From positions 278 to 64,277 of the forward strand of contig QZKM01000018.1 of assembly GCA_003599485.1 (NCBI GenBank): 64,000 bases of DNA, read 5' to 3'. Source of the stretch: Gammaproteobacteria bacterium. Its GTDB lineage: Bacteria > Pseudomonadota > Gammaproteobacteria > SURF-13. Of this stretch, positions 12,076 through 62,619 are shown in pieces. How positions within the stretch are numbered: the first letter of the stretch is position 1; each line of letters starts with the position of its first letter. The notes under the pieces were generated by a model. It saw only the letters and a program-made list of their open reading frames with translations, had not been told where the DNA came from and made no database searches. The position numbers and the translations under genes are program-made.

Positions 12076-12444
12076 GGGGGCGACCCGGTTTCGACGTGGG
12101 TCACAAAACCTGAGGGGCATGCCGAGGTGCAGTTCACCTCGTAAATCAAACTGCACAAATATAGTTGCCAACGACGACAACTACGCCTTAGCGGCCTAAT
12201 CCCCGCTAACCTCTGACTGAAGCCGTGCTTGTGCGTTCAGGTCCGCAAGGACATTCAGGGGACGACGCTCACAAGATCGCGCTGCGGCCCGTCCGTGGTC
12301 AACGCGCTAAAGCTCTGACGGACTCGCCTGCTGTGTTCCCTGCCTGTCGGGTAACGGCCGGTTAAACTCAAAGATGAGGCTACGCATGTAGAACCAAGGG
12401 CGGCGGACTTGCGGACGTGGGTTCGATTCCCACCGCCTCCACCA
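12076..12444 (+). ncRNA. ssrA: tmRNA (SsrA), tag peptide ANDDNYALAA
   Basis: 5' end GGGGGCGACCCGGUUUCGACG and 3' end GGUUCGAUUCCCACCGCCUCCACCA form the tRNA-like acceptor stem. The internal tag reading frame is GCC AAC GAC GAC AAC UAC GCC UUA GCG GCC UAA. Confidence 0.93.
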
Positions 12445-12452
12445 TCCAACCA

Positions 12453-12480
12453 AGGCCGGGCATCTCCGGCCTTATTTTTT
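12453..12480 (+). terminator. Rho-independent terminator after ssrA
   Basis: GGCCGGGCAUCUCCGGCC hairpin followed by UUAUUUUUU. Confidence 0.8.
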
Positions 12481-12494: not shown

Positions 12495-14174
12495 TTATCG
12501 AAGCATAACAAACAGCAACAGCAAATTTAGGATCAGTGACACAATAAACAGCGCTTTCCAGTGTTGAGGGCGGATGCGCTCAAGCAAAGGCGCTTTGCGT
12601 TGCGGGTGGCTGGTTGGCGGAGGACTGCTCAGCGCCGCGGCAAAATCTGCGGCGTGGGGGTAGCGTTGGCTTGGGTCGGGGGCGCAGGCCTGGCGCAGGA
12701 TTTCGGACAGCCAGTGCGGCACGTCGGGGTTGTAGCGCTCAGGCGGGATGAAGCGGCTGTAGGAAGGATGGGTGAAGGGTTCGATTTCACCATAGGGGTA
12801 TTTTCCGGTGAGCATCTCGTATATCGTCACCGCCGCGGAGTAGACGTCTGCACGCTCATCGGCCTCTCCGCCCGCCATCACCTCGGGCGCAATGTAGCTC
12901 GGCGTGCCGACGGGCGTGAGCGATTGACTGCCCGCGTCCATGCGCTCGATGCGGCTTACTCCGAGATCGAGCAGGCGCACCCGGTGTTCGGCGTCTATCA
13001 GAATATTTTCCGGTTTCACGTCGCGGTGGATCACGCCCTTGCGATGCAGATGGTCGAGGCCGGTTAGGATCTGCTGCGCCAGCGACAGCGTTTCGTGCAC
13101 GGACAGTCCGCTTTTCCGTTTGATGCGCGCGGCCAGAGTCTCGCCGTGGTGGAACACCATCACCGTGTAGAGCGCGCTGCGCCGTCCCGGGGTAAGCATG
13201 ATGGTCTTTACCACGTGCGGGCTGTCCAGGCGCCGGCCCAGCCATTCCTCGCGCAGAAAATAACTCACGAACGCGGCGTCATCGGCGTAACGCGGGTTGG
13301 GAAATTTTAGCGCCACGCGCTGGCCGGTTTCACTGTCCACCGCGGCATACAAGGTGGACAAACGTCCGCTGTGCAGGCGCTCGCCGATGACGAAGCCGTC
13401 CACCGTGTCGCCCGGTTTCGGCAGCGCACGGATGGGCAGCGCGGTGATGCTGAGACTGATATCGGATGCGGTCTCGGGCGGGAGCTTTTCCACGCGCGCC
13501 ACGCACGCGCTGACGTTATCCATGCTGCCCGCCTTGAGCGCTTGCAGCACCAGAGTCTCGGCAATGTCCTGCGCGCCGTGATTTTCCCGGGCAAGCACCT
13601 CGGTTATTGTCTGGACATCCAGCGTTTCGTGCACGCCGTCGCTGGTGATGAGAAACACGTCGCCTTCCTGCAGTTCCCCGCTTTGCACGTCGGCGTTGAG
13701 TTGTACATCCAACCCGCACGCGCGCGTAATCATGGAACCGATGTGCGCGTAGGGACGGCTGTGATCGGTGGTGACCTGCGTGAGCAGCCGGTTGCGGTAC
13801 AACCAGACGCGCGTGTCGCCCACGTGGCCGACGGCCCAGCGGCGATTGCGCAGCACCAGGGCGGAGAGCGTGGTGGCCCGGCCCGCTGGCGGTTCGGCCA
13901 GCACGGCGCGGTTGGCAGCAATGAAGCAATCCCTGAGCGTGTGCTCCAGGGTCAGGGTTTCGGGAGCGGCGTAGTATTCATCGCGCAAGGTGCGAATCGC
14001 GCACTCGGCGGCCTCTTTCCCTCCCGCCATGCCGCCCACGCCGTCGGCCACGGCGAACAGCGCGCCGTAGTCGAGATATTGGCCCGTGCTCGGCGTGATG
14101 ACGAGACAACTGTCTTCATTGGCCTTGCGTTTCCCCCCTTGCGACGAGCAACCGGCATCCAGAGTCAAGCTCAT
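12495..14174 (-). CDS. Fused PP2C-type Ser/Thr phosphatase (N-terminal) and Ser/Thr protein kinase (C-terminal) with a C-terminal transmembrane helix; last gene of the nitrate assimilation operon
   Basis: PP2C motifs KRKANEDS, AVADGVGG, GDTR, TSDGV and DN in residues ~1-235. Kinase motifs VALK, HRDVKPENIL, DLG and GTPSYIAPE in residues ~260-520. Hydrophobic tail ALFIVSLILNLLLLFVML. Only 6 nt separate its start from the upstream transporter stop. Confidence 0.85.
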   Translation of the reverse strand: MSLTLDAGCSSQGGKRKANEDSCLVITPSTGQYLDYGALFAVADGVGGMAGGKEAAECAIRTLRDEYYAAPETLTLEHTLRDCFIAANRAVLAEPPAGRATTLSALVLRNRRWAVGHVGDTRVWLYRNRLLTQVTTDHSRPYAHIGSMITRACGLDVQLNADVQSGELQEGDVFLITSDGVHETLDVQTITEVLARENHGAQDIAETLVLQALKAGSMDNVSACVARVEKLPPETASDISLSITALPIRALPKPGDTVDGFVIGERLHSGRLSTLYAAVDSETGQRVALKFPNPRYADDAAFVSYFLREEWLGRRLDSPHVVKTIMLTPGRRSALYTVMVFHHGETLAARIKRKSGLSVHETLSLAQQILTGLDHLHRKGVIHRDVKPENILIDAEHRVRLLDLGVSRIERMDAGSQSLTPVGTPSYIAPEVMAGGEADERADVYSAAVTIYEMLTGKYPYGEIEPFTHPSYSRFIPPERYNPDVPHWLSEILRQACAPDPSQRYPHAADFAAALSSPPPTSHPQRKAPLLERIRPQHWKALFIVSLILNLLLLFVMLR

Positions 14175-14180
14175 GCGTCA

Positions 14181-15467
14181 TTATACTTTGGCGGTCGTCA
14201 CCGTGGACGAACCCCAGGTGGTGCGCCAACGGGTTTTGACCAGGACAAGGCCAACCAGACCGAATAGCGCCAGCCCCGCGAACAGCCAGAAGCCGGCGGC
14301 GAAATCGCCGGTGATGCCCTTGGACCAGCCCAGTGTCTTGGCAAGAAAAAAGCCGCCTAGCCCGCCCGCGGCGCCGACCAGACCGGTGATAATGCCCATC
14401 TCGCGCCGGAAGCGCAGCGGCACCAGTTGAAACACCGAACCGTTGCCCATGCCGAGCGCCATCGCGCCGATGAAAAAAAGAGTCACCGCCAGCCAGGCGA
14501 CGGGCGGCAGGCCGGACAAACTCCAGCCCGCGACCTTGGCGGTGCTCGCCGCCAGTGCTTCCGGCGCCGGGCCTTCCGGCAGAAAGGCGATGCTGAAATA
14601 GCTCAGCGCCACCACTACGAATAATATCTGCAAGGCGCGGATGCCGCCGATGCGGTCGGCGAGCCATCCGCCGACGGGGCGGAACATCGAGCCGGCGGCG
14701 ACCACCAGGGCCGCCATCATGCCCGCCGTGATGCCCGAGGCGTGATACCAGGTGGAAAAATACAGCGGCAGCGCGTTGCCCAGCCCGACGAATCCGCCGA
14801 AGGTGATGGAGTAGAAAAACATGAACCACCAGGTGTCGGGATCGCCCAGCACCAGGCCGTAGTTTTTCAAGGTCACGGGGGCGCGCTGGTCCGGCGCGTC
14901 CCTGGCCATGAGGCTGTACAGGATAAACACCAGCACCACCGGGATCAGCAAAAAGCCGAACACGTTTTGCCAGCCGAAGGTTTCGGCAAACCAGGGAACC
15001 AGCAGCGAATCGAACACCACCCCGACGTTGCCCGCCCCGGCGATGCCGAGCACGATGCCCTGATAATGCGGCGGATACCAGCGGCTGGCCTGCGGGATGG
15101 CCACTGCGAAGCTCGCCCCGGCAAAGCCCAGCACCATGCCGAAGAGTTGCACCGCCAACTTGGAGTGCAGACCGAATAGCCAGACGTAGAGCAAGGCGGC
15201 AATGATGATGAGCTGCCCTATTTGCCCCGCGCGCTTGGGCCCGATGTGGTCGGCGAACATGCCCATGGGCACGCGCAGCAGCGCGCCGGACAGGATCGGT
15301 ATCGCCACCAGGCCAAACTTTTCTTCGATACTGAGGTTTAAATCCTGCATCAAGTACAGCGCCAGCGGCCCCAGCACGACCCAGACCATGAAGCTGACGT
15401 CGAAATATAAAAAGGCTGACAGCAGCGTCGGCCAGTGTCCGGTCTTGAGAAAGTCCTTTAGATTCAC
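14181..15467 (-). CDS. MFS nitrate/nitrite transporter (NarK/NasA family)
   Basis: 428 aa, 12 predicted TM helices, NarK-family sequence. The overlapping 453-aa ORF at 14116-15477 is a shadow frame. Confidence 0.85.
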   Translation of the reverse strand: MNLKDFLKTGHWPTLLSAFLYFDVSFMVWVVLGPLALYLMQDLNLSIEEKFGLVAIPILSGALLRVPMGMFADHIGPKRAGQIGQLIIIAALLYVWLFGLHSKLAVQLFGMVLGFAGASFAVAIPQASRWYPPHYQGIVLGIAGAGNVGVVFDSLLVPWFAETFGWQNVFGFLLIPVVLVFILYSLMARDAPDQRAPVTLKNYGLVLGDPDTWWFMFFYSITFGGFVGLGNALPLYFSTWYHASGITAGMMAALVVAAGSMFRPVGGWLADRIGGIRALQILFVVVALSYFSIAFLPEGPAPEALAASTAKVAGWSLSGLPPVAWLAVTLFFIGAMALGMGNGSVFQLVPLRFRREMGIITGLVGAAGGLGGFFLAKTLGWSKGITGDFAAGFWLFAGLALFGLVGLVLVKTRWRTTWGSSTVTTAKV

Positions 15468-15500
15468 TCAGTCTCACTCCTTATAGGGATAATCATGGCG

Positions 15501-18191
15501 TCAAGCACATTGCTTTACGGTCTGCGCAATCAGCGCCTTCAACTCGGGGATACAGGAACCGCAGTTGGTGCCCGCTTTAAGACGTTGGCCGATGGCCTCC
15601 ACGCTGTGCAGGCCGTCGCGTTGTATCGCGCGCAGCAGGGTGTTGCGCCCCACGTTGAAGCAAGCGCACACCGTGGCGCCGGCGTCCTCCACGGCGGCCA
15701 ATGGCCGTGCGGCAAGCAGGCTGTTGCGTTCCGCGTTCGTGAGCGCGCGCTTGAGGGCGAATAACTCCATCAGCCACGAGCGCGAGGGAAGTTCTGGGCC
15801 GGGGGCCACAAACAGACAGCTTTCCAGGCGCTGGTTCAACAGCCGCGCGCCGCGGTAACATCCGGCGCCACGATCGAGATAATCAATCCAGGCGACACGG
15901 TCGTTTTCACTGTCTTTGGGCGCGCAAAGCAGCGCGCGCGCCCACGCGCTCCAGTCGCCGGGTTGCGTCTCGCCCGCCAATTCATAACGCCACAACTCCA
16001 CGCCCCTGGCGCGCGCCCAGTAACTCACGTCATGCAGCGCCAGCTTGCGGCGCGACAACAAAAATCCATGCCAGCGCGGGCGGTAGGCGCTCACCCGCAC
16101 CGGCGTGTGCTTGGATTCCGGCTGGCCGGAAACCGGGTCCACCACGGGATGCACCAGCGCATCCACACGCGCCTGTGCGGCGAATTGATCGTTCCAGTGC
16201 ATGGGGACGAATACATTGCCGGGCAGCTGTGCGTCGTTCAGCATCGCACGCAGCGTGACGCTTCCGAGCCGGCTGGTCACACTTATCAAATCGTGTTGCC
16301 GTATACCGAGCGGCTCCGCATCCTGCGGATGCAACTCGGCATACGGTTCATACGTGTGGCTGGATAAACGCGCGGACTTGCCGGTGCGCGTCAAGGTGTG
16401 CCAGTGATCGCGCACGCGCCCGGTGTTGAGCACCATGGGATAGGCCTGATCCACCGGATGACGGGGATCACGCGGCGTGACGGGGATAAAGCGCGCCTTC
16501 CCCAACGGCGTATAAAACTGCCCGTCTCCAAACAGACGTTGTGTGCCGGCGGAACCGGGCTGCACTACCGGCCATTGGGTGGGCGGCAGCGTATCATAGG
16601 CGGCCTCATCCAAACCGCACAGCCCGGAAATGTCGAAGTCGCGCGCGCCGTCGTTCTCAAACCCGGACAGCGCCGCGTGCTCATTAAAGATTTGCGCGGG
16701 CGATGAGTAGTTGAACGCGTGCGTGTAGCCCATGCGTTTTGCCACTTGCGCGATGATCCACCAATCCGGCCGCGCCTCGCCGGGCGCAGGCAGAAATTTG
16801 CGCTGACGTGAAATACGCCGCTCGGAATTGGTCACCGTGCCGTCTTTTTCGCCCCACGCCGCCGCAGGCAACAAGACGTGGCCATAGGCCGTGGTGTCTG
16901 TATGGCGCACGCAGTCTGAAACGGCGACGAACTCACACGACTGCAACGCCTTACACGCCGCATCCGCGTCCGGCAGACTCACCACCGGATTGGTCGCCAT
17001 GATCCAGATGGCCTTGATCTTCCCCTCCCCCAGCGCACGAAACATGTCCACCGCCTTGAGCCCCGGTTTGTCCGCGATGACGGGCGATTGCCAGAAACGC
17101 TGTACGCGCGCGCGGTGTTCCGGAATCTCCAGCTCCATGTGCGCCGCCAATTGATTCGCCAGCCCTCCCACTTCGCGCCCGCCCATGGCGTTGGGCTGTC
17201 CGGTGAAGGAAAACGGCCCCATGCCGGGCCGGCCGATGCGTCCGGTGAGCAGATGGCAATTGATAATGGCGTTGACCTTGTCGGTGCCGCTGGAGGACTG
17301 ATTCACGCCCTGCGAGTAGACGGTCACCGTCTTTTCCGTGGCGGCGAACAGATCAAAAAACGCCTGCACCTGCGTTGCATCGAGTCCACATTGGAGGGCC
17401 GCGGCATCCGCGCCGGGCACGCTGACCAACGCGCTGTTTACCGCGGCCTCCACGCCTTCGGTATGAGCGCGGATATAGGCGTCATCGCGCCGACCGTTCA
17501 CGTGCAAATAACCCAGCAGGCCGTTAAACAGCGCCGCGTCGCTGCCGGAGCGCAACGCAAGATGCAGATCGGCGATGTCGCAGGTCGCGGTGCGGCGCGG
17601 GTCTATCACCACGATCTTGAGCCGGGGATTGGATTTCCTGGCGTGGGCGATGCGCTGAAACAATACCGGATGGCACCAGGCGGTATTGGAGCCCGCCAAT
17701 ACGATCAAATCCGCAAGCTCCAGGTCTTCATAGCAGCACGGCACCGTGTCACTGCCGAAGGCGCGTTTGTGTCCCGCGACGCTGGAGGCCATGCACAGGC
17801 GCGAGTTGGTATCAATATTGGCTGAACCGATAAATCCCTTCATCAGTTTGTTGGCGACGTAATAATCTTCCGTGAGTAATTGTCCGGATACATAAAACGC
17901 CACGGCGTCAGGCCCCTGCTCACGAATAATGCGTGCAAAGTTTTGCGCGATGGCGTCCAGCGCCGTGTCCCAGGTGCAGCGTTCGCCCCCCATTTCGGGA
18001 TAAAGCAGCCGCCCCTCCAGGTCTATGGTTTCAGCGAGCGCCGCGCCCTTGGAACACAGGCGTCCGAGGTTGGCCGGGTGCGTCTCGTCGCCGCTTATTT
18101 GCACGCTGCCGCCGGCTTGGACGGCGGCGGCTATCCCGCAGCCCACGCCACAATAAGGACAGGTGGTTTTTACACCCTCCGCGCCGGTCAT
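15501..18191 (-). CDS. nasA: Assimilatory nitrate reductase catalytic subunit (molybdopterin bis-MGD enzyme) with C-terminal BFD-like [2Fe-2S] domain
   Basis: N-terminal 4Fe-4S motif CPYCGVGCG, molybdopterin oxidoreductase core, and C-terminal CxC...CGSC BFD-like motif. Overlaps nirD by 4 nt. Confidence 0.9.
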   Translation of the reverse strand: MTGAEGVKTTCPYCGVGCGIAAAVQAGGSVQISGDETHPANLGRLCSKGAALAETIDLEGRLLYPEMGGERCTWDTALDAIAQNFARIIREQGPDAVAFYVSGQLLTEDYYVANKLMKGFIGSANIDTNSRLCMASSVAGHKRAFGSDTVPCCYEDLELADLIVLAGSNTAWCHPVLFQRIAHARKSNPRLKIVVIDPRRTATCDIADLHLALRSGSDAALFNGLLGYLHVNGRRDDAYIRAHTEGVEAAVNSALVSVPGADAAALQCGLDATQVQAFFDLFAATEKTVTVYSQGVNQSSSGTDKVNAIINCHLLTGRIGRPGMGPFSFTGQPNAMGGREVGGLANQLAAHMELEIPEHRARVQRFWQSPVIADKPGLKAVDMFRALGEGKIKAIWIMATNPVVSLPDADAACKALQSCEFVAVSDCVRHTDTTAYGHVLLPAAAWGEKDGTVTNSERRISRQRKFLPAPGEARPDWWIIAQVAKRMGYTHAFNYSSPAQIFNEHAALSGFENDGARDFDISGLCGLDEAAYDTLPPTQWPVVQPGSAGTQRLFGDGQFYTPLGKARFIPVTPRDPRHPVDQAYPMVLNTGRVRDHWHTLTRTGKSARLSSHTYEPYAELHPQDAEPLGIRQHDLISVTSRLGSVTLRAMLNDAQLPGNVFVPMHWNDQFAAQARVDALVHPVVDPVSGQPESKHTPVRVSAYRPRWHGFLLSRRKLALHDVSYWARARGVELWRYELAGETQPGDWSAWARALLCAPKDSENDRVAWIDYLDRGAGCYRGARLLNQRLESCLFVAPGPELPSRSWLMELFALKRALTNAERNSLLAARPLAAVEDAGATVCACFNVGRNTLLRAIQRDGLHSVEAIGQRLKAGTNCGSCIPELKALIAQTVKQCA

Positions 18192-18520
18192 GCGCTTTTC
18201 TGCAGCTCATCAGGCCGGAGTGATATACTCACCACGCCCTGCTCCACTTTCACCGGATAACAGGCTGTACGCCCCTCATCCGGCGCTACGGCGGAGCCGG
18301 TCACCAATTCGATCACCCAGTTGTGCAGCGGGCAGGTCACACGATTGCCGTGCACAATGCCCTGTGACAGCGGCCCGTTCCTGTGCGGACATTTGTCGTT
18401 GAGCGCGAATACTTCGTTATTTGCCGTACGGAACAGCGCGATGTCACCCTGCGCCGTGCGCATCACGCGTGCGCCCAGTATGGGGATATCTTCCAAACAT
18501 CCCGCTTCGATCCACTGCAT
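18188..18520 (-). CDS. nirD: Nitrite reductase small subunit NirD (Rieske-type); start at the Met of MQWIEAGCLED
   Basis: Rieske-like CPH...CPLH motifs. The longer ORF in the track (to 18712) overlaps the nirB 3' end and is an upstream extension. Confidence 0.85.
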   Translation of the reverse strand: MQWIEAGCLEDIPILGARVMRTAQGDIALFRTANNEVFALNDKCPHRNGPLSQGIVHGNRVTCPLHNWVIELVTGSAVAPDEGRTACYPVKVEQGVVSISLRPDELQKSA

Positions 18521-18528
18521 GGCTGGGC

Positions 18529-20967
18529 TCACACCACTTCTCTGAGGGGCGTGAATTCGTGTTTCTGTACTTCGCGTTGAGCCCGCTCCGCCCAGGGATC
18601 CAGTTGCGCGTATTTTTGTGATTCGATGAACCGCGCATACAGCGCCTTGCGCCCCTCTGTATCCTCCACCACGCGCTGCTTGACGTAGGCGAGCCCAACA
18701 CGCTCTATCCACGGCGCAGTACGGTCAAGATAACGCGCCTCTTCCCGGTACAACTGGATAAAAGCGCAACAATATTCTTCCACTTCGTCCTCGGTCGCCA
18801 CCTTGCACAGCAGATCGGTCGGGCGTATCTTCACGCCACCGTTGCCGCCGACGTGCAGCTCCCAGCCAGAATCCACCGCGACCACGCCGAAGTCCTTGAT
18901 GGTCGCCTCGGCGCAGTTGCGCGGACAACCCGACACCGCCATCTTGAACTTGTGCGGCATCCACGAACCCCAGGTGCGTTTTTCCAGGCGGATGCCCATG
19001 GCGGTGGAATCCTGCGTGCCGAAGCGGCACCATTCTTTGCCGACGCAGGTCTTCACGGTGCGCAGCGCCTTGCCGTAGGCGTGGCCGGACACCAAGCCGC
19101 CCTTGCCCAGTTCACGCCACACCGCGGGCAAATCTTCTTTCTTCACGCCCAGCAGATCAATGCGCTGCCCGCCGGTGACCTTGACGGTGGGGATGCTGAA
19201 CTTGTCCACCACGTCGGCGATGGTGCGCAGCTCATTGGAATTGGTGACGCCGCCCCACATGCGCGGCACAACCGAATAAGTGCCGTCCTTCTGAATATTG
19301 GCGTGCGCGCGCTCGTTGATGAAGCGCGATTGCGGGTCATCCTGATATTCCGCGGGCCAGGCGCACAACAGGTAATAATTGAGCGCGGGACGGCAGGAGT
19401 GACAGCCATCCGGATTAAGCCATTTAAAATGAGTCATGACCTCGCGTATCGTGAGCAGATGCTGTTCGCGTATGGCCTTGCGCACCTCATCGTGCGTGTG
19501 GTCGGTGCACTTGCACAACGGTTTTTCCCTGGGCGCAGCCGCGTAACCCCCGCCCAGCACCGAGGCCATGATCTGTTCCACCAGCCCGGTGCAGGAACCG
19601 CACGAAGAGGACGCCTTGGTGTGCGCGCGCACCTCTTCCAGCGTGAACAGGCCTTTTTCGGTGATCGCCTTGACGATGGCCCCCTTGCACACGCCGTTAC
19701 AGCCGCACACCTCCATGCCATCGCTCATTGCGGCCGCCTTGTTCTGGCCGCCGTGGCCCGCGTCGCCGAGATGCGCCTGACCGAACATGAGCTGATCGCG
19801 GAACGCGGCGACGTCGGCGCCGTCGCGCATCAACTGGAAATACCAGGCCCCGTCCACGGTGTCTCCATACAACACCGCGCCTTGAATGCGGTTGCCGCGG
19901 ATCACCAGCTTTTTGTACGCACCCTGCGATGCATCCTTGAGCACAATCTCTTCACTGCCCTCGCCGCCGTTGAAATCACCTGCGGAAAACAGCTCTATGC
20001 CGGTGACCTTGAGTTTGGTCGAGACCAGTGAACCTTGATAGCGCAGGTAGCCGAAGTGAGCAAGATGATTGGCGCAGACCCTGGCCTGCTCGAACAGCGG
20101 CGCGACCAAGCCGTAAGTTTGGTTGCGGTGCTGCACGCACTCGCCGACGGCGTAGATACTGGGGTCATACGTTTGCAGCGTATCGTTCACCACGACGCCG
20201 CGCTCGCAATAAATGCCGGATTTTTTCGCCAGCTCTATGTTGGGCCGGATACCCGCCGCCATCACGACGAGATCGGCATACAGTTCGGAGCCGTCTTCGA
20301 AACGCACACCGCGCACGCGCTTCTCGCCCAGAATCTCCACAGTCTGCGCGGGCATGTGGAAATGCATGCCGCGTTGTTCCAGCGATAGCCGCAGCATTTC
20401 GCCCGCCACCCTGTCCAATTGACGTTCCATCAGCGTCTCGTGGATGTGCACCACGGTCACGCTCATGCCCTGGCGCATCAGGCCATTCGCCGCCTCCAGA
20501 CCCAGCAAACCGCCGCCGATCACCACCGCGTGCCGGTATTTTTCCGCGGCGGCGATCATCGCCTGCACGTCGCGGATATCGCGGAAGGTCACTACCCCCG
20601 GCAGGTCTTTCCCCGGCACCGGAACCACAAACGGATTCGAGCCGGTCGCCAGCACCAGACGGTCATAAACCGCACTGGCGCCGTCAGCGGTGATGACCCT
20701 GCGCCTGGCGCGGTCTATCCAGGCCACTTCGGTACCGCAATGGAGCATGATGCCGTTGTCTGCGTACCATTGCCTATCATTGAGCATGATCTCGGCTATG
20801 GTCTTCTCACCGGCCAGCACGGGCGAGAGCAGAATGCGGTTGTAATTACCGTAGGGCTCGGAACCGAACACGGTAATCTCGTATTTATCCGGCGCGACCT
20901 TCAGCAGTTCCTCCAGAGTACGCACTCCGGCCATGCCGTTGCCGACCAATATCAGCTTCTCTCTCAT
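18529..20967 (-). CDS. nirB: NAD(P)H-dependent nitrite reductase large subunit NirB (real start probably the Met of MREKLILVGNG; ORF extends to 21024)
   Basis: FAD/NAD-binding GxGxxG near the N-terminus, BFD-like 2Fe-2S domain, and siroheme/4Fe-4S sulfite-nitrite reductase domain (CxxxxC...C). Confidence 0.92.
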   Translation of the reverse strand: MREKLILVGNGMAGVRTLEELLKVAPDKYEITVFGSEPYGNYNRILLSPVLAGEKTIAEIMLNDRQWYADNGIMLHCGTEVAWIDRARRRVITADGASAVYDRLVLATGSNPFVVPVPGKDLPGVVTFRDIRDVQAMIAAAEKYRHAVVIGGGLLGLEAANGLMRQGMSVTVVHIHETLMERQLDRVAGEMLRLSLEQRGMHFHMPAQTVEILGEKRVRGVRFEDGSELYADLVVMAAGIRPNIELAKKSGIYCERGVVVNDTLQTYDPSIYAVGECVQHRNQTYGLVAPLFEQARVCANHLAHFGYLRYQGSLVSTKLKVTGIELFSAGDFNGGEGSEEIVLKDASQGAYKKLVIRGNRIQGAVLYGDTVDGAWYFQLMRDGADVAAFRDQLMFGQAHLGDAGHGGQNKAAAMSDGMEVCGCNGVCKGAIVKAITEKGLFTLEEVRAHTKASSSCGSCTGLVEQIMASVLGGGYAAAPREKPLCKCTDHTHDEVRKAIREQHLLTIREVMTHFKWLNPDGCHSCRPALNYYLLCAWPAEYQDDPQSRFINERAHANIQKDGTYSVVPRMWGGVTNSNELRTIADVVDKFSIPTVKVTGGQRIDLLGVKKEDLPAVWRELGKGGLVSGHAYGKALRTVKTCVGKEWCRFGTQDSTAMGIRLEKRTWGSWMPHKFKMAVSGCPRNCAEATIKDFGVVAVDSGWELHVGGNGGVKIRPTDLLCKVATEDEVEEYCCAFIQLYREEARYLDRTAPWIERVGLAYVKQRVVEDTEGRKALYARFIESQKYAQLDPWAERAQREVQKHEFTPLREVV

Positions 20968-21106
20968 CTGAAACCCTCGTACTTCGAACTTTGGATAAGA
21001 GTGTCTCAGCAAGTTATGGGCCAACCGCGTTTTCCAATCTAATCAATTGTTTTTAATTATTTTTTTGTCCAGGCACGACAAATGAAAGTAGATGCAGCGG
21101 CGCTGC

Positions 21107-21156
21107 CTGCACCAAATCACAGCAAGCGTGCATTTTGATTCCCGTATTTGGTGCAG
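21107..21156. promoter_or_regulatory. Perfect 11-bp inverted repeat CTGCACCAAAT-N28-ATTTGGTGCAG in the nirB/mobA divergent intergenic region
   Basis: Seen directly in the sequence. It could be a leader RNA hairpin or a dimeric regulator binding site. Confidence 0.45.
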
Positions 21157-21252
21157 AAAACTTCTTGTGCATACGCGCAGCAACGCGCCAACCCGCGCTG
21201 CGCCGGGATATTTTTCCTCCTGGTATGAGGATTGCTGACTCAATCAAACACA

Positions 21253-21912
21253 ATGCGCGCGCAACCACACGTTACCATTACCGGAGTGATCCTCGCGGGC
21301 GGACAGGGCCGCCGCCTGCATGGTGCGGACAAGGGCTTTCTGGAGCTTGCGGGGAAGCCGCTGGTGGAACATATCCAGCGGTGGCTGGCGCCACAGGTTG
21401 ACCAGATCATCATCAACGCCAATCGCAACCTGCCGCGTTACGCGCGTTATGGCGTGCCGGTAGTGGAGGATGGCGCCGCCGGACATTGCGGCCCACTGGC
21501 CGGGATGCTGAGCGCCATGCGTCACGCCGGGACGGACTATATCCTCACCGCGCCCTGCGATTCGCCTCTACCGCTACGGCAGTACGCGTCGCGCATGCTG
21601 GCTGCGCTGAGGCAAGCCGGGGCCGGCGCGTGCGTGGCGCATGACGGGATACGCCTGCAACCGGTATATGTCCTGTTGCACCGCGGCCATGCGCCTGATT
21701 TGCAGAACTACCTGCGCGGCGGCGGACGCGCGGTTCACGAATGGCTGAAGCGTCACCCCTGTGCGCTGGCGGATTTTTCAGATCAGCCCGAAGCATTCAT
21801 GAACGTGAACACCCCCGGACACTACGCGCGGCTGAAACGGGCCGTTGAAAGCAAATTTGACGTAAACTATGTGGATCATGGAGGCGAAGAAAGACAGCCT
21901 GCTTGGCGTTGA
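21253..21912 (+). CDS. mobA: Molybdenum cofactor guanylyltransferase MobA
   Basis: VTITGVILAGGQGRRLHGADKGFLELAGKPL is the MobA nucleotide-binding N-terminus. Confidence 0.85.
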   Translation: MRAQPHVTITGVILAGGQGRRLHGADKGFLELAGKPLVEHIQRWLAPQVDQIIINANRNLPRYARYGVPVVEDGAAGHCGPLAGMLSAMRHAGTDYILTAPCDSPLPLRQYASRMLAALRQAGAGACVAHDGIRLQPVYVLLHRGHAPDLQNYLRGGGRAVHEWLKRHPCALADFSDQPEAFMNVNTPGHYARLKRAVESKFDVNYVDHGGEERQPAWR

Positions 21913-23104
21913 GGAAGCGCAGCGGCGCATCAGCGCCGCCATCACGCCCGTCACCGAATGCGAGCAAATCGCACTCGGCGACAGCCTGGGGCGTGTGCTC
22001 GGCGCGGACCTCTGCTCCAGCGCGGACGTGCCGCCTTATGCCAACTCGGCCATGGACGGCTATGCCTTCAATAGCGCCGATTTGCCGGACATCGGCAAGC
22101 GTGATTTAAAAATCGTGGGCGCGGCACTGGCGGGCAAGCCTTACAGTGCGGCACTGCGCCCGGGCGAATGCATACGCATCATGACCGGTGCAGTGCTGCC
22201 GCAGGGCGCGGACACCGTCGTCATGCAGGAGCAGGCGGAGTGCGCGGGCGACACCCTGCTTCTCGCGCCGGGGCATGCACCCGGCCAGCATGTACGCCGG
22301 GCCGGCGAGGATATTGCGCGCGGGGACGTAGTATTAAAGTGTGGCAGACGGCTCCAACCCGCTGACCTCGGCCTGCTGGCCTCGCTCGGCATCGCCACGG
22401 TGAACGTCTACCGGCGTATACGCGTTGCGTTGTTCACCACCGGAGATGAACTGCGCGAGGTGGATGAACCGCTGGACGCAGGACAGATTCACGACAGCAA
22501 TCGTTACGTGCTGCGCGCCCTGCTCACCCAGGCGGGCGTGACGTGCGTGGACATGGGCATCGTGCGCGACAGGCGCGAACAGGTGCGCGCGGCGCTGGCC
22601 CGGGCAGCGGATATCGCGGACGTGGTCATCAGCAGCGGCGGGGCTTCGGCAGGTGAAACCGATTACATCCGGGAAATTCTGGCCGAGCTGGGCGAAGTGA
22701 ATTTCTGGCGCATCGCCATGAAGCCGGGCAAGCCACTGGTCTTCGGCCGCATCGGGCGCGCGCATTTTTTCGGCTTGCCCGGCAATCCGGTGTCCGCCAT
22801 GGTCACCTTTTACCAGTTCGCGCTGCCCGCGCTACTCAAACTGATGGGCATGCAGGACCGCGCGGCGCATACCCTTTTGCTGAACTGTACCGAACATCTC
22901 AAGAAGGCGGCTGGACGCACCGAGTTTCTGCGCGGCGTCATCGAACACGACGCTGCGGGTCAAATGACGGTGCGCACCACCGGGGCGCAAGGATCGGGAA
23001 TACTCAGCTCCATGAGCAAGGCCGACTGTTTCATTATCCTGCCCGGACCGTGTACGGAAGTCACACCCGGCGCTCCGGTGACGGTGCAATTATTCACGCT
23101 CTGA
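21878..23104 (+). CDS. moeA: Molybdopterin molybdenumtransferase MoeA
   Basis: MoeA N-terminal, MoCF-biosynthesis (GGASAGETDY) and C-terminal domains. Overlaps the mobA end. Confidence 0.9.
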   Translation: MEAKKDSLLGVEEAQRRISAAITPVTECEQIALGDSLGRVLGADLCSSADVPPYANSAMDGYAFNSADLPDIGKRDLKIVGAALAGKPYSAALRPGECIRIMTGAVLPQGADTVVMQEQAECAGDTLLLAPGHAPGQHVRRAGEDIARGDVVLKCGRRLQPADLGLLASLGIATVNVYRRIRVALFTTGDELREVDEPLDAGQIHDSNRYVLRALLTQAGVTCVDMGIVRDRREQVRAALARAADIADVVISSGGASAGETDYIREILAELGEVNFWRIAMKPGKPLVFGRIGRAHFFGLPGNPVSAMVTFYQFALPALLKLMGMQDRAAHTLLLNCTEHLKKAAGRTEFLRGVIEHDAAGQMTVRTTGAQGSGILSSMSKADCFIILPGPCTEVTPGAPVTVQLFTL

Positions 23105-45294: not shown

Positions 45295-46605
45295 ATGCAG
45301 CAGATTGATTTAATCGTCCACGCGCGCTGGGTGATCCCGGTGGAGCCCGCGGGCGTGCTGGAACACCACTGCGTGGCGGTGCATGAAGGGCGCATCGCAG
45401 CAGTGCTGCCCAGCACGGACGCTTCGATGCGCTACCGGGCCGCGGACATCCTGCATCTTCCCGATCACGCACTGATTCCGGGCCTTATTAACGCGCACAC
45501 CCACGCCGCCATGTCGCTGCTGCGCGGGCTGGCCGATGACCTGCCGCTGATGGAGTGGCTGAACAAGCACATCTGGCCCGCCGAAAGCGCCTGGGTCAAC
45601 CCTGAATTCGTACACGACGGCGCCGGGCTTGCCGTCGCGGAAATGCTGCGCGGCGGCGTCACCTGCTTTAACGACATGTATTTCTTCCCGGATGTCACCG
45701 CGCGCGTCGCCGCGCGCTGCGGCATGCGCGCCAACGTCGGATTGATCGTGCTGGACTTCTCTACCGCCTGGGCGAGCAACGCGGACGACTATCTGCACAA
45801 GGGCATCGCGCTGCACGACTTGCTGCGCAATGAGCCGCTGCTCAGCGTCAGCTTCGCACCGCATGCGCCGTATACGGTGTCCGACGCGCCGCTGCAAGAC
45901 ATCGTTAAATACGCGGAAGAGATGAACCTGCAAATACACATGCACGTGCACGAGACCGCCGAGGAGGTGCGCCAGGGAGTGGATAAATACGGCACACGCC
46001 CGCTGCAACGTTTGCAGGAGCTAGGGCTGCTGTCGCCCTCGCTCATGGCGGTGCACATGACGCAACTGACCGATGAAGAGATCGCGCAGGTTGCGCGGAG
46101 CGGCGCGCACGTGCTGCACTGCCCGGAATCCAACCTCAAACTGGCAAGCGGCTTCTGCCCGGTGGACAAACTCATCAAGGCCGGCGTGAACGTGGCCATC
46201 GGCACCGACGGCGCGGCGAGCAATAATGACCTGGATATGTGGAGTGAAATGCGGAGCGCGGCGCTGCTCGCCAAGGGCGTGAGCGGCGACGCCACCAGCG
46301 TGCCCGCCGCAGAGGCCCTGCGCATGGCGACGATCAACGGCGCGCGCGCGCTGGGATTGGAGGACAAAACCGGTTCCCTGCAACCCGGCAAGGCCGCCGA
46401 TATGACCGCGGTGCATTTAGGCGCAATCGAAACCCAGCCGCTGTATGACCCCGTGTCGCAACTGGTGTATGCGGCGGGGCGTCATCAGGTGACCGATGTC
46501 TGGGTGGCCGGGCGGCGCCTGCTGCGCGAACGCAAACTCACCACCCTCGATGAGCAGGCCATCCTCGCCAGGGCCGCGCAATGGCGGGATAAGATAAGAC
46601 CCTAG
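45295..46605 (+). CDS. mtaD: 5-methylthioadenosine/S-adenosylhomocysteine deaminase (amidohydrolase, TRZ/ATZ family)
   Basis: Metal-binding HxH (INAHTHAAMS) and amidohydrolase core. Confidence 0.8.
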   Translation: MQQIDLIVHARWVIPVEPAGVLEHHCVAVHEGRIAAVLPSTDASMRYRAADILHLPDHALIPGLINAHTHAAMSLLRGLADDLPLMEWLNKHIWPAESAWVNPEFVHDGAGLAVAEMLRGGVTCFNDMYFFPDVTARVAARCGMRANVGLIVLDFSTAWASNADDYLHKGIALHDLLRNEPLLSVSFAPHAPYTVSDAPLQDIVKYAEEMNLQIHMHVHETAEEVRQGVDKYGTRPLQRLQELGLLSPSLMAVHMTQLTDEEIAQVARSGAHVLHCPESNLKLASGFCPVDKLIKAGVNVAIGTDGAASNNDLDMWSEMRSAALLAKGVSGDATSVPAAEALRMATINGARALGLEDKTGSLQPGKAADMTAVHLGAIETQPLYDPVSQLVYAAGRHQVTDVWVAGRRLLRERKLTTLDEQAILARAAQWRDKIRP

Positions 46606-48434
46606 TTGATGTTTACCAGCCGCTGCCGCAGCCGGCCCGTGATCTGCGCGGCGGGCAGCGGGCCGCCCAGGTAATAGCCCTGCGCAAAATCGCAACTCAA
46701 CCCGGCGAGCCTGTCCAGAACTTCGCGCGTCTCGACGCCCTCGCCTACCACCTTGATCCCAAACGCATGCGCCAGATCAATAATCTGGCGCACGATCACG
46801 GCGTCGTCCTCGTTCATCGCCATCCCGGTCACAAACGACTGGCCGATCTTGATCTCGTCCACCGGCGGCTTCCTGAGATAGCTGAGCGAGGAATAGCCGG
46901 TGCCGAAGCCGTCAACGGACAGCCGCACGCCAAGTTCGCTCAAACGCATGAGCATGTCCGTGACGCGCGCCGGGTCCGACATGACGCTCTCGGTGATCTC
47001 CAATTCCAGATACTGCGGTGCGAAGCCGGTGGCGTGCAGCAATTGCCCGATCTGGTCCAGGAGCTGGCCGTTTTGCAGGTTCTGCACGGAAAGATTGACC
47101 GCGATACCGACAGGCAGACCTGCCTCATGCCAGGCGCGGCCTTGGCGCAATGCGGCGTCGAGCACCCACAGGGTGAGCCGGTTGATCAACCCGGTGCGCT
47201 CGGCAACCGGAATAAACTGATCGGGCGCGATCAGGCCGTGCTGCGGGTGCTGCCAGCGCACCAGGGCCTCCACGCCCGCCACCTCACCCGTCGTTATGGA
47301 AACCTTGGGCTGATAGTGCAGCACCAGTTGTTCATGTTCGATGGCCTGGCGCAGCTCTCCGATGAGCGCCAGGCGGTGCACGGTGCGATGGTCGTATAAC
47401 GCGGCATAAACGGCATAGCCGCCGTTCTGTTTGGCTTCGTACATCGCCGCATCGGCGCGCTGCATGAGCAGATCAGCCTCGTCGCCGTGCTCCGGATAAA
47501 GCGCAATGCCGATGCTGGCGCCGATCTCCATGCTCAGTCCTTCAACGACCATGGCTTCCTGCAGGGCGTGGAGTATTTTCTGCGCGACCAATGTGGCCTG
47601 GTTCGCGCCGGTGTGCGGCAGCACCACCGCGAATTCATCTCCGCCCAAGCGCGCCAACGTGTCGGAATCACGCAGCACGTTGCGCAGGCGCGGCCCGATC
47701 TGACGCAACAGCAGATCACCCCTCTGGTGACCGAGCGTATCGTTGACTTCCTTGAACCGGTCGAGGTCCATCAGCAGCAGGGCAAAAGGCGTGTCCTCGC
47801 GCCGGCCGATGCTGATGGCCTGTTGCAAACAGTTATACAACAGGGCGCGGTTGGGCAGGCCGGTCAGCGGGTCGTGCAAGGCCTGATGTTCCCGCGCCTG
47901 CACATCCTCCTGCGCCTGACGCAGCGCCCTGTTGAGTTCGCCGCTGACGATTTCGTGCTGGACCCACAGCGCCACGTCACACAGTTTTTGCACATCGTCT
48001 TCGCTCATTTGCCGTGGGCGGTAATCCACGATGCACAACGTGCCCAGCCTGCTGCCGTCTAGGGCGCTGACCGGACATCCGGCATAGAAACGTATAAACG
48101 GCGGCCCCGCCACATAAGGGTTGCCGGCAAAACGCTCGTCGAGCAGGGTGTCGGGCACCACCATCACCTCGTCCCTCAGGATGGCGTGGGCGCAAAAGGA
48201 GAAGGCGCGCGGGGTCTCGGAAATGTCCAGACCGTAGCTCGACTTGAACCACTGCCGCTCGGCGTCAATCAGGCTGATGAGGGAAACCGGCGCGTCGAAC
48301 AAGCGCGCGGCAAAACGGGTGATGCGGTCGAAGCGCGTTTCGGGGGGTGTATCGAGCAGGTTCAGGTTTGCCAACGTGGCAAGCCTGGCGGCCTCGTCGG
48401 CCGGCAGCGGCGCTTCAAGCATAACTTTCCCCAA
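46602..48434 (-). CDS. GAF-GGDEF-EAL c-di-GMP signalling protein
   Basis: N-terminal GAF domain, a GGDEF domain (RLGGDEFAVV) and an EAL domain (ELEITE). Confidence 0.85.
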   Translation of the reverse strand: MGKVMLEAPLPADEAARLATLANLNLLDTPPETRFDRITRFAARLFDAPVSLISLIDAERQWFKSSYGLDISETPRAFSFCAHAILRDEVMVVPDTLLDERFAGNPYVAGPPFIRFYAGCPVSALDGSRLGTLCIVDYRPRQMSEDDVQKLCDVALWVQHEIVSGELNRALRQAQEDVQAREHQALHDPLTGLPNRALLYNCLQQAISIGRREDTPFALLLMDLDRFKEVNDTLGHQRGDLLLRQIGPRLRNVLRDSDTLARLGGDEFAVVLPHTGANQATLVAQKILHALQEAMVVEGLSMEIGASIGIALYPEHGDEADLLMQRADAAMYEAKQNGGYAVYAALYDHRTVHRLALIGELRQAIEHEQLVLHYQPKVSITTGEVAGVEALVRWQHPQHGLIAPDQFIPVAERTGLINRLTLWVLDAALRQGRAWHEAGLPVGIAVNLSVQNLQNGQLLDQIGQLLHATGFAPQYLELEITESVMSDPARVTDMLMRLSELGVRLSVDGFGTGYSSLSYLRKPPVDEIKIGQSFVTGMAMNEDDAVIVRQIIDLAHAFGIKVVGEGVETREVLDRLAGLSCDFAQGYYLGGPLPAAQITGRLRQRLVNIN

Positions 48435-51288: not shown

Positions 51289-52160
51289 CACGGATGGCTC
51301 CCCACGATTACTTCCGGGACAAAATAGCGCAGCCCGGCTCCTTGCTGTACTACAGCCTGCTGTACACCCCGCAAGCAGGGCGCGACGCCCTCATCGCACT
51401 GCATACCCTGCGTCACGAATTGCTCGATGTGCTGGACAAATGCAGCGACGCTTCGGTGGCGCGCATGAAGTTGAACTGGTGGCGCGAGGAGCTGCATCGC
51501 CTGTTTCAGAACCAGGCCCGCCATCCCTTGACCCAGGCACTGCTCCCGCTCACCCAACGCTACACTCTTCCACTTGAGCATTTCCTGGAGATTGTGGACG
51601 GCGTGCAGATGGGACTGGACGTCACCCGCTACTCGTCTTGCAATGAACTGCTGCTCTACTGCCACCGGGTAAGCAGCATGGTGACGCTGATGAGCGTGGA
51701 GATTCTGGGATACACGGAACGCGCCACGCTCAAATTCGCCCATGAGTTAGGCGTGGCGCTGCAACTGACGCGTTTTATACTGAACCTGCGCCACGACTCG
51801 CGGCGCGGACGGATTTTTATACCGCTTGATGAAATGAACCGCTTCGGTGTGAACGTCAACGACCTGAAAGAAGCCGCGCCCGGCGGCAAGCTGAAGGAGC
51901 TGTTAAGGCTTCAGGCGCAGCGCGTGCGTGAATACCACGCCAAGGCGTTGGCTCAACTCCCCGCAGTGGACCGTTACCGCCAGCTTCCTCTGCTCACCGA
52001 GGCCTGGCTCCATCTGGCCTTGCTGGACAAGCTTGAGGACAGGGACTACTGGCTGCCGGAACAACCTCTGACACTCGCGCCGTTACGCCAACTCTGGATC
52101 GCCTGGCGCACCCTGCGCCGCGAGAAGGGCATGCGCAAATCCGCGACTCAAGGCGCCTGA
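51285..52160 (+). CDS. Squalene/phytoene synthase family protein (head-to-head isoprenoid synthase, HpnD/CrtB-like)
   Basis: Family-typical sequence (YCHRVSSMV...RFI.LDE). Confidence 0.6.
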   Translation: MTRMAPHDYFRDKIAQPGSLLYYSLLYTPQAGRDALIALHTLRHELLDVLDKCSDASVARMKLNWWREELHRLFQNQARHPLTQALLPLTQRYTLPLEHFLEIVDGVQMGLDVTRYSSCNELLLYCHRVSSMVTLMSVEILGYTERATLKFAHELGVALQLTRFILNLRHDSRRGRIFIPLDEMNRFGVNVNDLKEAAPGGKLKELLRLQAQRVREYHAKALAQLPAVDRYRQLPLLTEAWLHLALLDKLEDRDYWLPEQPLTLAPLRQLWIAWRTLRREKGMRKSATQGA

Positions 52161-53185
52161 CCGGTGCGCGCGAGGTAATCCCTCAAATTTTCCGGCTTGT
52201 AGCCCGAGAGGTTTTTGTAGCGCCGCAGCGCATCGGGATGGACTTTTTCTCCGGTGTTTTCACCCGCCCCAATGGGGCGATGATGACTGGGTGTGAGCTT
52301 GTAGAGCCCCGTCCTGGAGTCGCGCAACTCGCCGTCCCATCCGGGATGGATGTTTTCCCTGACGTAGTCCTCGTCAAAGGCAAGCCCCGCGCCTTGCGCC
52401 TTTTCCTTCATCCACATGAAGGTGATGTCGGAAAGGCCACTGTCTTCATAGCCGCCGCCGACGTTGGTATGCACACCGGCGAACCACACCTGCTCCAGTT
52501 TTTGACCCGCCGCGTGCGGCTGCTGCTGCCAGATGCTCGGCGCAAACGGCGCGCGCTTCTCGTCTATCGCCAGTGCCTGATAAGCGTGATCCACGTAACT
52601 GCTCAGCTTCACGTCGTGGAATTCCAGTCCTATCAGCCTGTTCGCATAACGCATCCCGCGCAGCGGAATGCCCAACGCGCCCACGGTGTCCCACACGCCG
52701 ATGCATTTAATACGCACCTCGTGCGCGTACATCCTGCGGAATATCTGCGCTTCCACCGAATTCGGATTGGACTGGTCATCCCGGCGGCGATACAAGGCAT
52801 AAGCCTGCTGGAATTTATCCGCGTGTTCCTTTTTCAGCAACCCGCAGTTGCGCATCAGACCGGCGGTGCTTCTCGCGGTATAAGCGCCGCGGCTGAAACC
52901 GAACAGATAAATCTCGTCGTCCGGCTCATAGTTTTCCACCAGAAACCGGTACGCATCCTCGATATTTTCTGACAAGCCGGCGCCAAAGGCCCCGCCCCTC
53001 ACGCGATCCCACCAATGCGTGCCCACCCCCTTGTCGTAGAAAACCCGTTGCTCCATTCCGCGCGCATCCTGACGCGCCACCGCCAGCGCCATCTTCGCCA
53101 CGTTACTCGGCCTGATCTGACCCCGGTCTTTCTGGTCAGGCGTATTCCATGTGCCGTCGGAACAGATGACGATGCGTTTAGGCAT
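52148..53185 (-). CDS. DUF2235 alpha/beta-hydrolase (T6SS Tle1-like phospholipase catalytic domain), standalone
   Basis: Starts IVICSDGTWN. Nucleophile elbow GFSRGA (GxSxG). Only ~345 aa, with no Tle1 C-terminal extension. Confidence 0.65.
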   Translation of the reverse strand: MPKRIVICSDGTWNTPDQKDRGQIRPSNVAKMALAVARQDARGMEQRVFYDKGVGTHWWDRVRGGAFGAGLSENIEDAYRFLVENYEPDDEIYLFGFSRGAYTARSTAGLMRNCGLLKKEHADKFQQAYALYRRRDDQSNPNSVEAQIFRRMYAHEVRIKCIGVWDTVGALGIPLRGMRYANRLIGLEFHDVKLSSYVDHAYQALAIDEKRAPFAPSIWQQQPHAAGQKLEQVWFAGVHTNVGGGYEDSGLSDITFMWMKEKAQGAGLAFDEDYVRENIHPGWDGELRDSRTGLYKLTPSHHRPIGAGENTGEKVHPDALRRYKNLSGYKPENLRDYLARTGQAP

Positions 53186-62610: not shown

Positions 62611-62619
62611 AATTTTATT

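Follow-up and report, generated by a model that had tools for sequence, protein, structure and literature searches.

What does a protein kinase fused to a protein phosphatase do at the end of a nitrate assimilation operon? The question is raised by a 64,000-nucleotide (nt) stretch of a metagenome-assembled gammaproteobacterial contig (QZKM01000018.1, positions 278 to 64,277; assembly GCA_003599485.1), referred to here as the 64-kb window, in which genes for nitrite reductase, nitrate reductase and a nitrate transporter are followed by an open reading frame (ORF) for a 559-amino-acid (aa) protein with both catalytic domains. The transcriptional control of bacterial nitrate assimilation by NtrBC, NasST, NasR and NtcA is well studied. 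The way in which proteobacteria adjust nitrate uptake within seconds to minutes is, to our knowledge, not well studied, and we know of no explanation for the kinase gene that annotations have recorded in nas clusters for two decades. We show here that the constant partner of this gene is a nitrate/nitrite transporter and not a reductase, and we propose that its product may act on the transporter itself.

The nas operon of the window

The operon consists of five closely packed genes, all on the minus strand:

nirB, 18529 to 20967, minus strand: assimilatory NAD(P)H nitrite reductase large subunit, 812 aa (TIGR02374, 957 bits)
nirD, 18188 to 18520, minus strand: nitrite reductase small subunit, 110 aa (TIGR02378, 83.6 bits; cutoff 74.65)
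nasA/nasC, 15501 to 18191, minus strand: assimilatory nitrate reductase, 896 aa, with a C-terminal BFD-like 2Fe-2S domain
narK, 14181 to 15467, minus strand: NNP-family nitrate transporter, 428 aa (MFS_1, E-value 1.7e-33; TIGR00886, 251 bits)
kinase/phosphatase ORF, 12495 to 14174 including the stop codon, minus strand: tail-anchored PP2C / Hanks Ser/Thr kinase, 559 aa

Pfam finds Pyr_redox_2, Fer2_BFD and NIR_SIR domains in NirB and Molybdop_Fe4S4, Molybdopterin, Molydop_binding and Fer2_BFD domains in NasA, and NarK aligns across transmembrane (TM) helices TM1-TM12 of E. coli NarK (4jr9). A previous reading of the letters alone (the sequence-only reading) had described tight linkage of these genes, and the ORFs and junctions bear it out: the nirB stop lies 8 nt from the nirD ATG, nirD and nasA overlap by 4 nt (ATGA), a 33-nt gap containing AAGGAG separates nasA from narK, which starts with GTG, and 6 nt separate narK from the kinase/phosphatase ORF. 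The same reading placed the upper limit of nirB at 21024, which is only the start of the longest ORF opening with TTG; nirB starts at the ATG at 20967, preceded by the Shine-Dalgarno-like sequence acgaggg.

The kinase/phosphatase gene travels with narK

We examined the neighbourhood of the gene in two samples of related loci. The genome sample comprises 80 loci retrieved with an alignment of the kinase/phosphatase family and searched by tblastn with the Nas proteins of the window; 77 contain narK. In 75 of these 77 gamma- and betaproteobacterial loci the kinase/phosphatase gene follows narK on the same strand and starts at most 235 nt (median 73) beyond it. By comparison, nirB, nirD and nasA occur in at least ten arrangements, in which they precede or follow the pair, flank it on both sides or are encoded on the other strand. 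The metagenome sample was selected through NarK with a two-sequence alignment, which returned only NarKs bearing the C-terminal tail described below, mostly alphaproteobacterial ones, and in 68 of its loci the tail is complete and the sequence continues for at least 1.8 kb downstream. A kinase/phosphatase gene lies directly downstream of narK in 67 of the 68; the exception (L133) has the variant tail RWRSSW and no kinase within 6 kb. The synteny thus extends over about 140 independent loci across alpha-, beta- and gammaproteobacteria. Because narK is the invariant neighbour while nirB, nirD and nasA move, the gene is linked specifically to nitrate uptake.

Pairing with other transporters occurs elsewhere in the family. 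A paralogue of about 580-604 aa, with HQD for HRD, has nasT and/or an NrtABC-type nitrate ABC transporter as its neighbour in three clusters (L011 11457-13202, L057 12773-14566 and L086 1-578) that also carry a narK-linked copy. On plasmid pA of Acinetobacter junii (L168 7401-10716), cynS and an FNT formate/nitrite-type channel are followed by a distant family member (28% identity), and such Acinetobacter FNT-kinase/phosphatase pairs are found on mobilizable plasmids. In Catenovulum a different NNP subtype is paired with the kinase/phosphatase.

Two 69%-identical relatives (L003 and L085; L085 5940-9981) have replaced the BFD-containing NasA with a 726-aa molybdoenzyme and a 615-aa Fer4_11/DmsC-like protein. 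The replacement genes are inserted between narK and the kinase/phosphatase gene, and these are the only loci with an intact enzyme in which narK is not the immediate neighbour.

Several candidates for a 'Rosetta stone' fusion of NarK with the kinase were considered among 150 NarK representatives, and none was usable: P0163, in which the NarK tail runs into a PP2C domain, has the appearance of a metagenome gene call with a frameshift, P0192 joins two NarKs and P0149 joins NarK to a Usp domain.

A tail-anchored enzyme with two apparently competent catalytic domains

The sequence-only reading had given the 559-aa protein a full PP2C domain, a full Hanks-type kinase domain and a C-terminal TM helix. 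Pfam, the catalytic residues and an AlphaFold2 model all agree with this layout:

13485 to 14174, minus strand: PP2C (PPM) phosphatase domain, residues 1-230 (PF13672 and PF00481)
12627 to 13400, minus strand: Hanks-type kinase domain, residues 259-516, with the atypical loop LHxGR where GxGxxG is usual
12576 to 12590, minus strand: juxtamembrane motif P529-L-L-E-R533 (PLxxR; P 98%, L 94% and R 99% conserved in 132 unique intact members)
12501 to 12569, minus strand: C-terminal TM tail anchor, residues 536-558, hydrophobic, a helix in the AlphaFold2 model and present in 21/21 aligned homologues

The phosphatase half matches the PP2C_2 profile over residues 17-186 (1.6e-14, 54.4 bits, cutoff 24) and the PP2C profile at 3.2e-9 (37.3 bits, cutoff 20.3). 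All metal-binding Asp residues are kept, namely D21 (NED), D44-G45 (DGVGG), D120 (GDTR), D179 (SDG) and D219-N220, so that the protein combines above-threshold profile matches with the Asp residues of motifs I, II, VIII and XI that define PP2C membership. The kinase half matches Pkinase (PF00069) over residues 263-505 (2.3e-42, 145.6 bits, cutoff 31.7) and retains every catalytic residue: K290, E310, H383-R384-D385, K387, N390, D403 (in DLG, not DFG) and E431 (APE). At the position of the canonical glycine-rich loop the window protein reads I-G-E-R-L-H268-S-G-R271-L-S. This L-H-x-[SG]-R loop is a hallmark of the family, with H268 conserved at 96% and R271 at 90% among 132 unique intact homologues, in which K290 is invariant (100%). 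Many active bacterial kinases depart from the consensus at this loop. Across the family, 134 of 205 sequences keep all 17 catalytic positions. The window protein thus appears, from its residues, to be catalytically competent as both kinase and phosphatase.

The AlphaFold2 model (mean predicted local distance difference test score, pLDDT, 84) consists of the PP2C domain (1-230), a linker, the kinase domain (259-516), a disordered segment (517-535) and a single helix (536-558). In Foldseek searches the kinase half matches PknB and the PP2C half PstP and tPphA, each with a TM-score on the target of about 0.8; no solved chain with both folds is among the matches. The protein has no signal peptide, and the TM helix stops one residue short of the C terminus, which leaves no extracytoplasmic domain. 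Both catalytic domains are therefore placed in the cytoplasm, held at the membrane by the tail anchor. No sensor domain was found by Pfam or in the model, which contain only the PP2C domain, linker, kinase and anchor. The order PP2C, kinase, C-terminal TM helix is common to all 21 aligned homologues and to the window protein. Alpha-, beta- and gammaproteobacteria all have homologues of about 560 aa, and in the distant members from Acinetobacter and Catenovulum a related juxtamembrane motif retains its Arg/Lys.

Catalytic residues are lost where the transporter is absent

Acidiferrobacterales and Sulfurifustis-like genomes contain a sub-clade of about 54 unique members in which the DFG Asp (replaced by Gly), most of the PP2C Asp residues and the juxtamembrane motif are gone, although the ORF, of about 560 aa and with its TM helix, is intact. 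In all seven degenerate loci that were inspected (L006, L081/L082, L083, L084, L170, L171 and L172) the gene has no transporter neighbour and instead adjoins pnp-rpsO-truB-rbfA-infB. A nasA gene in L083 and a mobA-like gene in L171, each just upstream, look like remnants of a nas locus. Catalytic conservation in the family tracks the presence of the transporter partner.

A conserved tail on the kinase-linked transporters

The kinase-linked NarK proteins share a C-terminal motif:

14211 to 14231, minus strand: codons of the NarK tail motif R413-W-R-T416-T417-W-G419, a candidate phospho-acceptor or docking site

RWRTTWG is identical in 77/77 kinase-linked NarKs whose overall identity is only about 50%, and the 77 paired proteins end in VKxRWRTTWG(x3-4)[ST]xA[KR][VI]. 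The motif is also present in the NarK-selected metagenome set and in a Methylocystis orthologue. Homology to E. coli NarK (4jr9) puts the tail after TM12 and in the cytoplasm, on the same side of the membrane as the catalytic domains. Among 73 full-length NarK representatives (50% identity clusters), RWRTTWG is limited to the closest few. In the closest clade that lacks it (P0126 and P0271-274, about 47% identical), K-x-R-W is kept and the TT is replaced (RWCAA, RWRAA, RWEPQ). In the two contexts available for this clade, narK is followed by a convergent gene for a giant nitrate/nitrite reductase fusion and there is no kinase/phosphatase gene; in L173, the one context with DNA sequence, no kinase was found within 8 kb. 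The tail thus behaves as a phospho-acceptor or docking tail would be expected to look, and it is a correlative candidate for that role.

The convergent ORF of L173 (9264-15545) is itself unusual, encoding 2093 aa in which a molybdopterin nitrate reductase, a cNMP-binding domain and two NIR_SIR modules are fused into an all-in-one assimilatory enzyme. NarK of the window also has an insertion of about 24 residues at approximately residues 296-320 (14508-14582), LPEGPAPEALAAS...GLPP, which it has in common with Methylocystis NarK and which is not in betaproteobacterial orthologues.

Transcription of the operon and the place of canonical regulators

Both ends of the operon carry candidate control elements:

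21008 to 21023, minus strand: sigma-54-type -24/-12 motif TGGCCCATAACTTGCT, 41 nt upstream of the nirB ATG
21108 to 21155, minus strand: inverted TGCACCAAA ... TTTGGTGCA repeats with an A/T-rich spacer, a putative NtrC-type upstream activating site
12452 to 12473, both strands: GC-rich hairpin with a 9-bp stem, 6 GC pairs and a T-run on the plus strand, between the convergent nas operon and ssrA

The number of sigma-54 motifs in the 64-kb window is not above chance (3 matches against 2.35 expected), and the promoter call rests instead on position and on conservation in L085, where nirB is preceded by the counterpart -24/-12 motif TGGCCCGACTATTGCC. A similar GCACC/GGTGC arrangement also lies upstream of nirB in L085, and the TGCACC/GGTGCA repeats of the window may have an NtrC-type activating role. 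The operon accordingly carries the signature of canonical general nitrogen control of the sigma-54/NtrC type; NtrBC dependence is documented for the homologous Pseudomonas genes (PMC7214821).

With the predicted -12 element 41 nt before the ATG, the nirB leader would be only about 30-55 nt long, which looks too short for a terminator/antiterminator of the NasT/NasR type. Only this short leader gives any real hint that the nirB promoter may lack nitrate-specific antitermination. A permissive-E-value Rfam search across the operon returned transfer-messenger RNA (tmRNA) only and no leader element.

Our scan found no sigma-70-like or other promoter-like site at the narK/kinase junction. The hairpin lies 22 nt past the kinase/phosphatase stop codon, beside the tmRNA gene ssrA (12076-12444), beyond which lies smpB, and this single structure likely terminates both the nas operon and ssrA. 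Because the gap to narK is 6 nt, the junction has no promoter and one strong terminator follows the gene, the natural inference is that the kinase/phosphatase gene is co-transcribed with the nas genes.

Regulators of nitrate assimilation were sought in the window by Pfam analysis of essentially every substantial ORF and by a home-built REC+ANTAR hidden Markov model (HMM), made from Pfam-verified NasT proteins of related loci and run on six-frame ORFs of at least 50 aa. Pfam found no NasT, NasS, NasR, NtcA/NtcB or NarXL encoded in the window, and the HMM had no match there and strong matches in about 28 related loci. The two ORFs that diverge from nirB (226 and 411 aa) were considered as nasT/nasS and excluded, their Pfam domains being those of mobA and moeA; the remaining ORFs are housekeeping, polysaccharide and cyclic di-GMP (c-di-GMP) genes only. 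The window thus holds none of the marks of a NasS/NasT- or NasR-controlled operon (ANTAR gene, NrtA-like NasS, leader).

The absence of a canonical regulator, as put forward in the sequence-only reading, therefore holds for these 64 kb of a metagenome-assembled contig; as a property of the system it does not. In roughly a third of related loci, a NasT-like or NasR-like gene is found no more than 10 kb from the kinase/phosphatase gene. A Methylocystis plasmid has the order nasT-nasS-nirB-nirD-nasA-MFS-kinase/phosphatase, which is that of the window with the canonical regulators in front, and Pseudomonas sp. UW4 has nasST-nasA-ppkB-nasDEC-cobA (PMC3596284). Because such relatives retain nasST or nasR, the kinase/phosphatase adds to transcriptional control and antiterminators and does not replace them. 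The interpretation given in the sequence-only reading is thus partly supported: its phospho-switch coupled to nitrate uptake is strengthened and becomes a transporter-specific model, and its emphasis on a missing regulator falls away.

A proposed phospho-switch on NarK and its alternatives

We propose, with a probability of about 0.5, that an active tail-anchored bifunctional enzyme is co-transcribed with nirBD-nasA-narK under NtrC/sigma-54-type control, has NarK as its dedicated partner and phosphorylates it, most likely at T416/T417, to tune uptake. The C-terminal helix and juxtamembrane PLxxR motif would hold both cytoplasmic catalytic domains beside NarK. The kinase would phosphorylate the tail R-W-R-T416-T417-W-G and the PP2C domain would strip the phosphate from it, such that transporter activity would be set post-translationally by the balance of the two activities. 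Because the protein has no sensor domain, the input could be a cytoplasmic nitrogen signal or metabolite acting on a catalytic domain, or else the transport or conformational state of NarK. This layer would supplement transcriptional control. We infer that the enzyme is active, that NarK is its substrate and that T416/T417 is where it acts, as well as the sign of the effect and the kind of signal. In favour of the proposal are the narK synteny in both samples, the pairings with other transporter families, the NarK tail, the catalytic conservation that tracks the transporter, the lack of a sensor domain and the precedent of the plant switches described below, as well as the co-ordinated change of PA1783, PA1782 and PA1781, the P. 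aeruginosa nasA, ppkB and nirB genes, in biofilm transcriptomes (PMC6954232).

Several observations weigh against it. The kinase lacks a canonical glycine-rich loop and has DLG in place of DFG, and the interdomain geometry of the AlphaFold2 model is uncertain (predicted template modelling score, pTM, 0.55). The kinase-less NarK clade that serves as a control is small, comprising two contexts and five sequences, and the co-occurrence of tail and kinase could be mere features of one clade. RWRTTWG is absent from the Catenovulum NNP-type NarK and the Acinetobacter FNT channel, both of which have the partner gene, so the tail is no universal target. A full-text literature search found no functional study of the family, biochemical or genetic.

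The paralogue that lies immediately upstream of nasT in L011, and before an NrtA-type binding protein in L086, would be just as compatible with a substrate that is a regulator. The main alternative, less probable than the proposal, is that the enzyme regulates nitrate assimilation through a substrate other than NarK (NasT/NasS, NirB, NasA, PII/GlnK or NtrB/C), or that NarK serves only as its sensor (a 'transceptor') and the signal is passed on; narK adjacency would then reflect co-expression and co-localisation at the membrane. Such a role accords with the pairing of distant members with transporters that lack RWRTTWG, and the seemingly too short nirB leader of the window would leave room for another nitrate-responsive input. 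The PII phosphatase tPphA is among the top structural matches of the PP2C half, although PstP and other generic PP2Cs score equally. However, narK is the sole invariant neighbour; each of nirB, nirD, nasA and nasT is missing from many loci or lies elsewhere in them, and there is no NasT/NasS near the window operon or in its closest relatives. The tail anchor and conserved juxtamembrane motif point to a partner in the membrane, and the NarK sister clade that has no kinase has also lost the otherwise invariant TT.

The degenerate sub-clade bears on whether catalysis matters at all. Its members are numerous and keep a TM-bearing ORF of about 560 aa after losing most of the PP2C metal ligands and the Asp of DFG, and the whole family has another sequence in place of the glycine-rich loop, as might be expected if the protein were a membrane scaffold, chaperone or allosteric transporter subunit built from pseudokinase/pseudophosphatase-like binding modules. 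We consider such a non-catalytic role improbable, because the retention of all 17 positions of both domains by the window protein and the 134 sequences would be hard to explain without catalysis, and because the degenerate clade is exactly the one without a transporter neighbour (7/7 loci). More improbable still is an unrelated passenger, a generic signalling or defence-type kinase that came to lie at the operon end by chance. The protein does have some NCBIfam likeness to the defence kinases MADS6 (175 bits, cutoff 460) and BREX PglW (82 bits, cutoff 990), but these scores, far below what membership of either family requires, reflect the shared kinase fold only, and the context is nas, not defence. 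The 6-nt gap and promoterless junction speak against a passenger, and the synteny of about 140 narK loci effectively refutes it.

The proposed phosphorylation of NarK is defined in specific terms by the comparative results, which name the partner (NarK), a candidate site (T416/T417) and the catalytic residues K290, D385, D44 and D219. They also supply natural controls: a NarK clade that lacks both the kinase neighbour and the TT, and a clade of degenerate enzymes that lacks a transporter neighbour. If the proposal is true, NarK would rank among the few bacterial nutrient transporters gated directly by Hanks-type phosphorylation, and the system would converge strikingly with nitrate signalling in plants; should it be wrong, the gene would be no more than one ordinary member of its annotated family.

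Relation to annotated genes and known systems

The gene is less novel than the sequence-only reading implied. The exact protein is present in NCBI as 'MAG: bifunctional protein-serine/threonine kinase/phosphatase [Gammaproteobacteria bacterium]', and genes of this kind are listed in published nas clusters (PMC3596284, PMC8527097, PMC6954232). The window gene is an ordinary member of an annotated but uncharacterised family. The further statement of that reading, that some nas clusters hold a PA1782-like Ser/Thr kinase gene of uncharacterised role, is in line with the genome papers. P. aeruginosa has PA1783 nasA, PA1782 ppkB and PA1781 nirB at consecutive loci (PMC6954232), Methylococcus nas clusters are described as including a 'protein kinase and nitrate transporter' (PMC8527097), and the P. 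aeruginosa kinase literature mentions PA1782 only as a predicted kinase (PMC8560001, PMC11197903). PA1782/ppkB is linked to the window protein by gene order in the literature and by synteny. A P. putida preprint using randomly barcoded transposon sequencing (RB-TnSeq) reports nitrate phenotypes for the transporter, nasT and nasS, does not mention a kinase and has no entry for PP_2091, the presumed locus tag; because the presence of the gene in KT2440 is not established, this says nothing either way. The NCBI name and the mentions in nas clusters were thus already known, and the narK synteny, the transporter pairings, the NarK tail and the degenerate sub-clade are new here.

The window protein shares with the NCBI family and ppkB a length of about 560 aa, the PP2C-kinase-TM order and a place right after a NarK-type transporter, with no essential difference. 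The window operon differs from that of Pseudomonas ppkB in that the pair comes after nirB-nirD-nasA, at their 3' end, and does not precede nirB, and in the lack of a nearby nasST.

The Stk1/Stp1 and PknB/PstP pairs of Gram-positive bacteria and actinobacteria have the same two catalytic folds, with cognate kinase and phosphatase encoded together, as here. In those systems they are two separate proteins, and the kinase has a mid-protein TM helix and extracellular PASTA repeats, whereas the window protein is one chain with an anchor at its extreme C terminus. Membership of the PASTA-kinase and Stp1 families was rejected (NF033483, 187 bits against a cutoff of 450; NF033484, 130 against 230; no PASTA repeats).

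In plants, NRT2.1, which belongs to the NNP family as NarK does, is switched by C-terminal phosphorylation and a PP2C, and T101 of NRT1.1 is controlled by CIPK23 and the PP2C ABI2. In both cases a Ser/Thr kinase and a PP2C oppose each other at a cytoplasmic site of a nitrate transporter, which for NRT2.1 is in the C-terminal tail. The analogy is functional only, because the plant enzymes are unrelated beyond their folds, are separate proteins, are not anchored to the membrane in this way and operate in eukaryotic networks. In cyanobacteria, phosphorylation of PII (GlnB) and its reversal by the PP2C PphA couple nitrogen status to the short-term control of nitrate/nitrite uptake. There the target is PII and not the transporter, and the kinase is not fused to the phosphatase; the PP2C half of the window protein is about 30% identical to tPphA, no more than to PstP. 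By function the window protein would most resemble the plant NRT2.1/NRT1.1 switches and, more loosely, the PII-P/PphA system. NasS/NasT and NasR are likewise dedicated regulators of nas clusters and co-occur with the kinase/phosphatase in many relatives, but they are unrelated proteins that act on the mRNA leader, and none is encoded in the window.

More tentatively, the PP2C-kinase family could be the missing post-translational regulator of nitrogen oxyanion import across Proteobacteria, hooked independently to NarK/NNP, NrtABC and FNT transporters, with RWRTTWG as the target in the main NarK lineage. It might then be a bacterial counterpart of the plant NRT2.1/NRT1.1 switches and the basis of the rapid inhibition of nitrate uptake by ammonium or nitrite in non-cyanobacterial bacteria.

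Other features of the window

The genes on the far side of the nirB promoter region are divergent from the operon:

mobA-moeA, 21232 to 23104, plus strand: divergent from nirB; Pfam NTP_transf_3 and MoeA_N, MoCF_biosynth, MoeA_C

Their products are involved in the synthesis of the molybdopterin guanine dinucleotide cofactor and are accessory to NasA. Beyond them lies hemH, and mobA-moeA also flank the nas cluster of L085.

A GAF-GGDEF-EAL protein is encoded at 46602-48434 on the minus strand; c-di-GMP has been reported to inhibit NasT in P. putida (PMC10783516), and nothing in the window ties this gene to the nas operon. A protein with a type VI secretion system (T6SS) Tle1-like phospholipase effector domain (PF09994, 5.5e-89) is encoded at 52148-53185, also on the minus strand, in a region of lower GC content (about 57%), with no other T6SS genes seen nearby. 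In the last 2 kb of the window (61900-64000) the GC content drops abruptly from about 62% to about 32%. This segment encodes an epimerase/dehydratase and two glycosyltransferases, and it could have come in by horizontal transfer as a surface-polysaccharide island or else reflect a chimeric join made during metagenome assembly.

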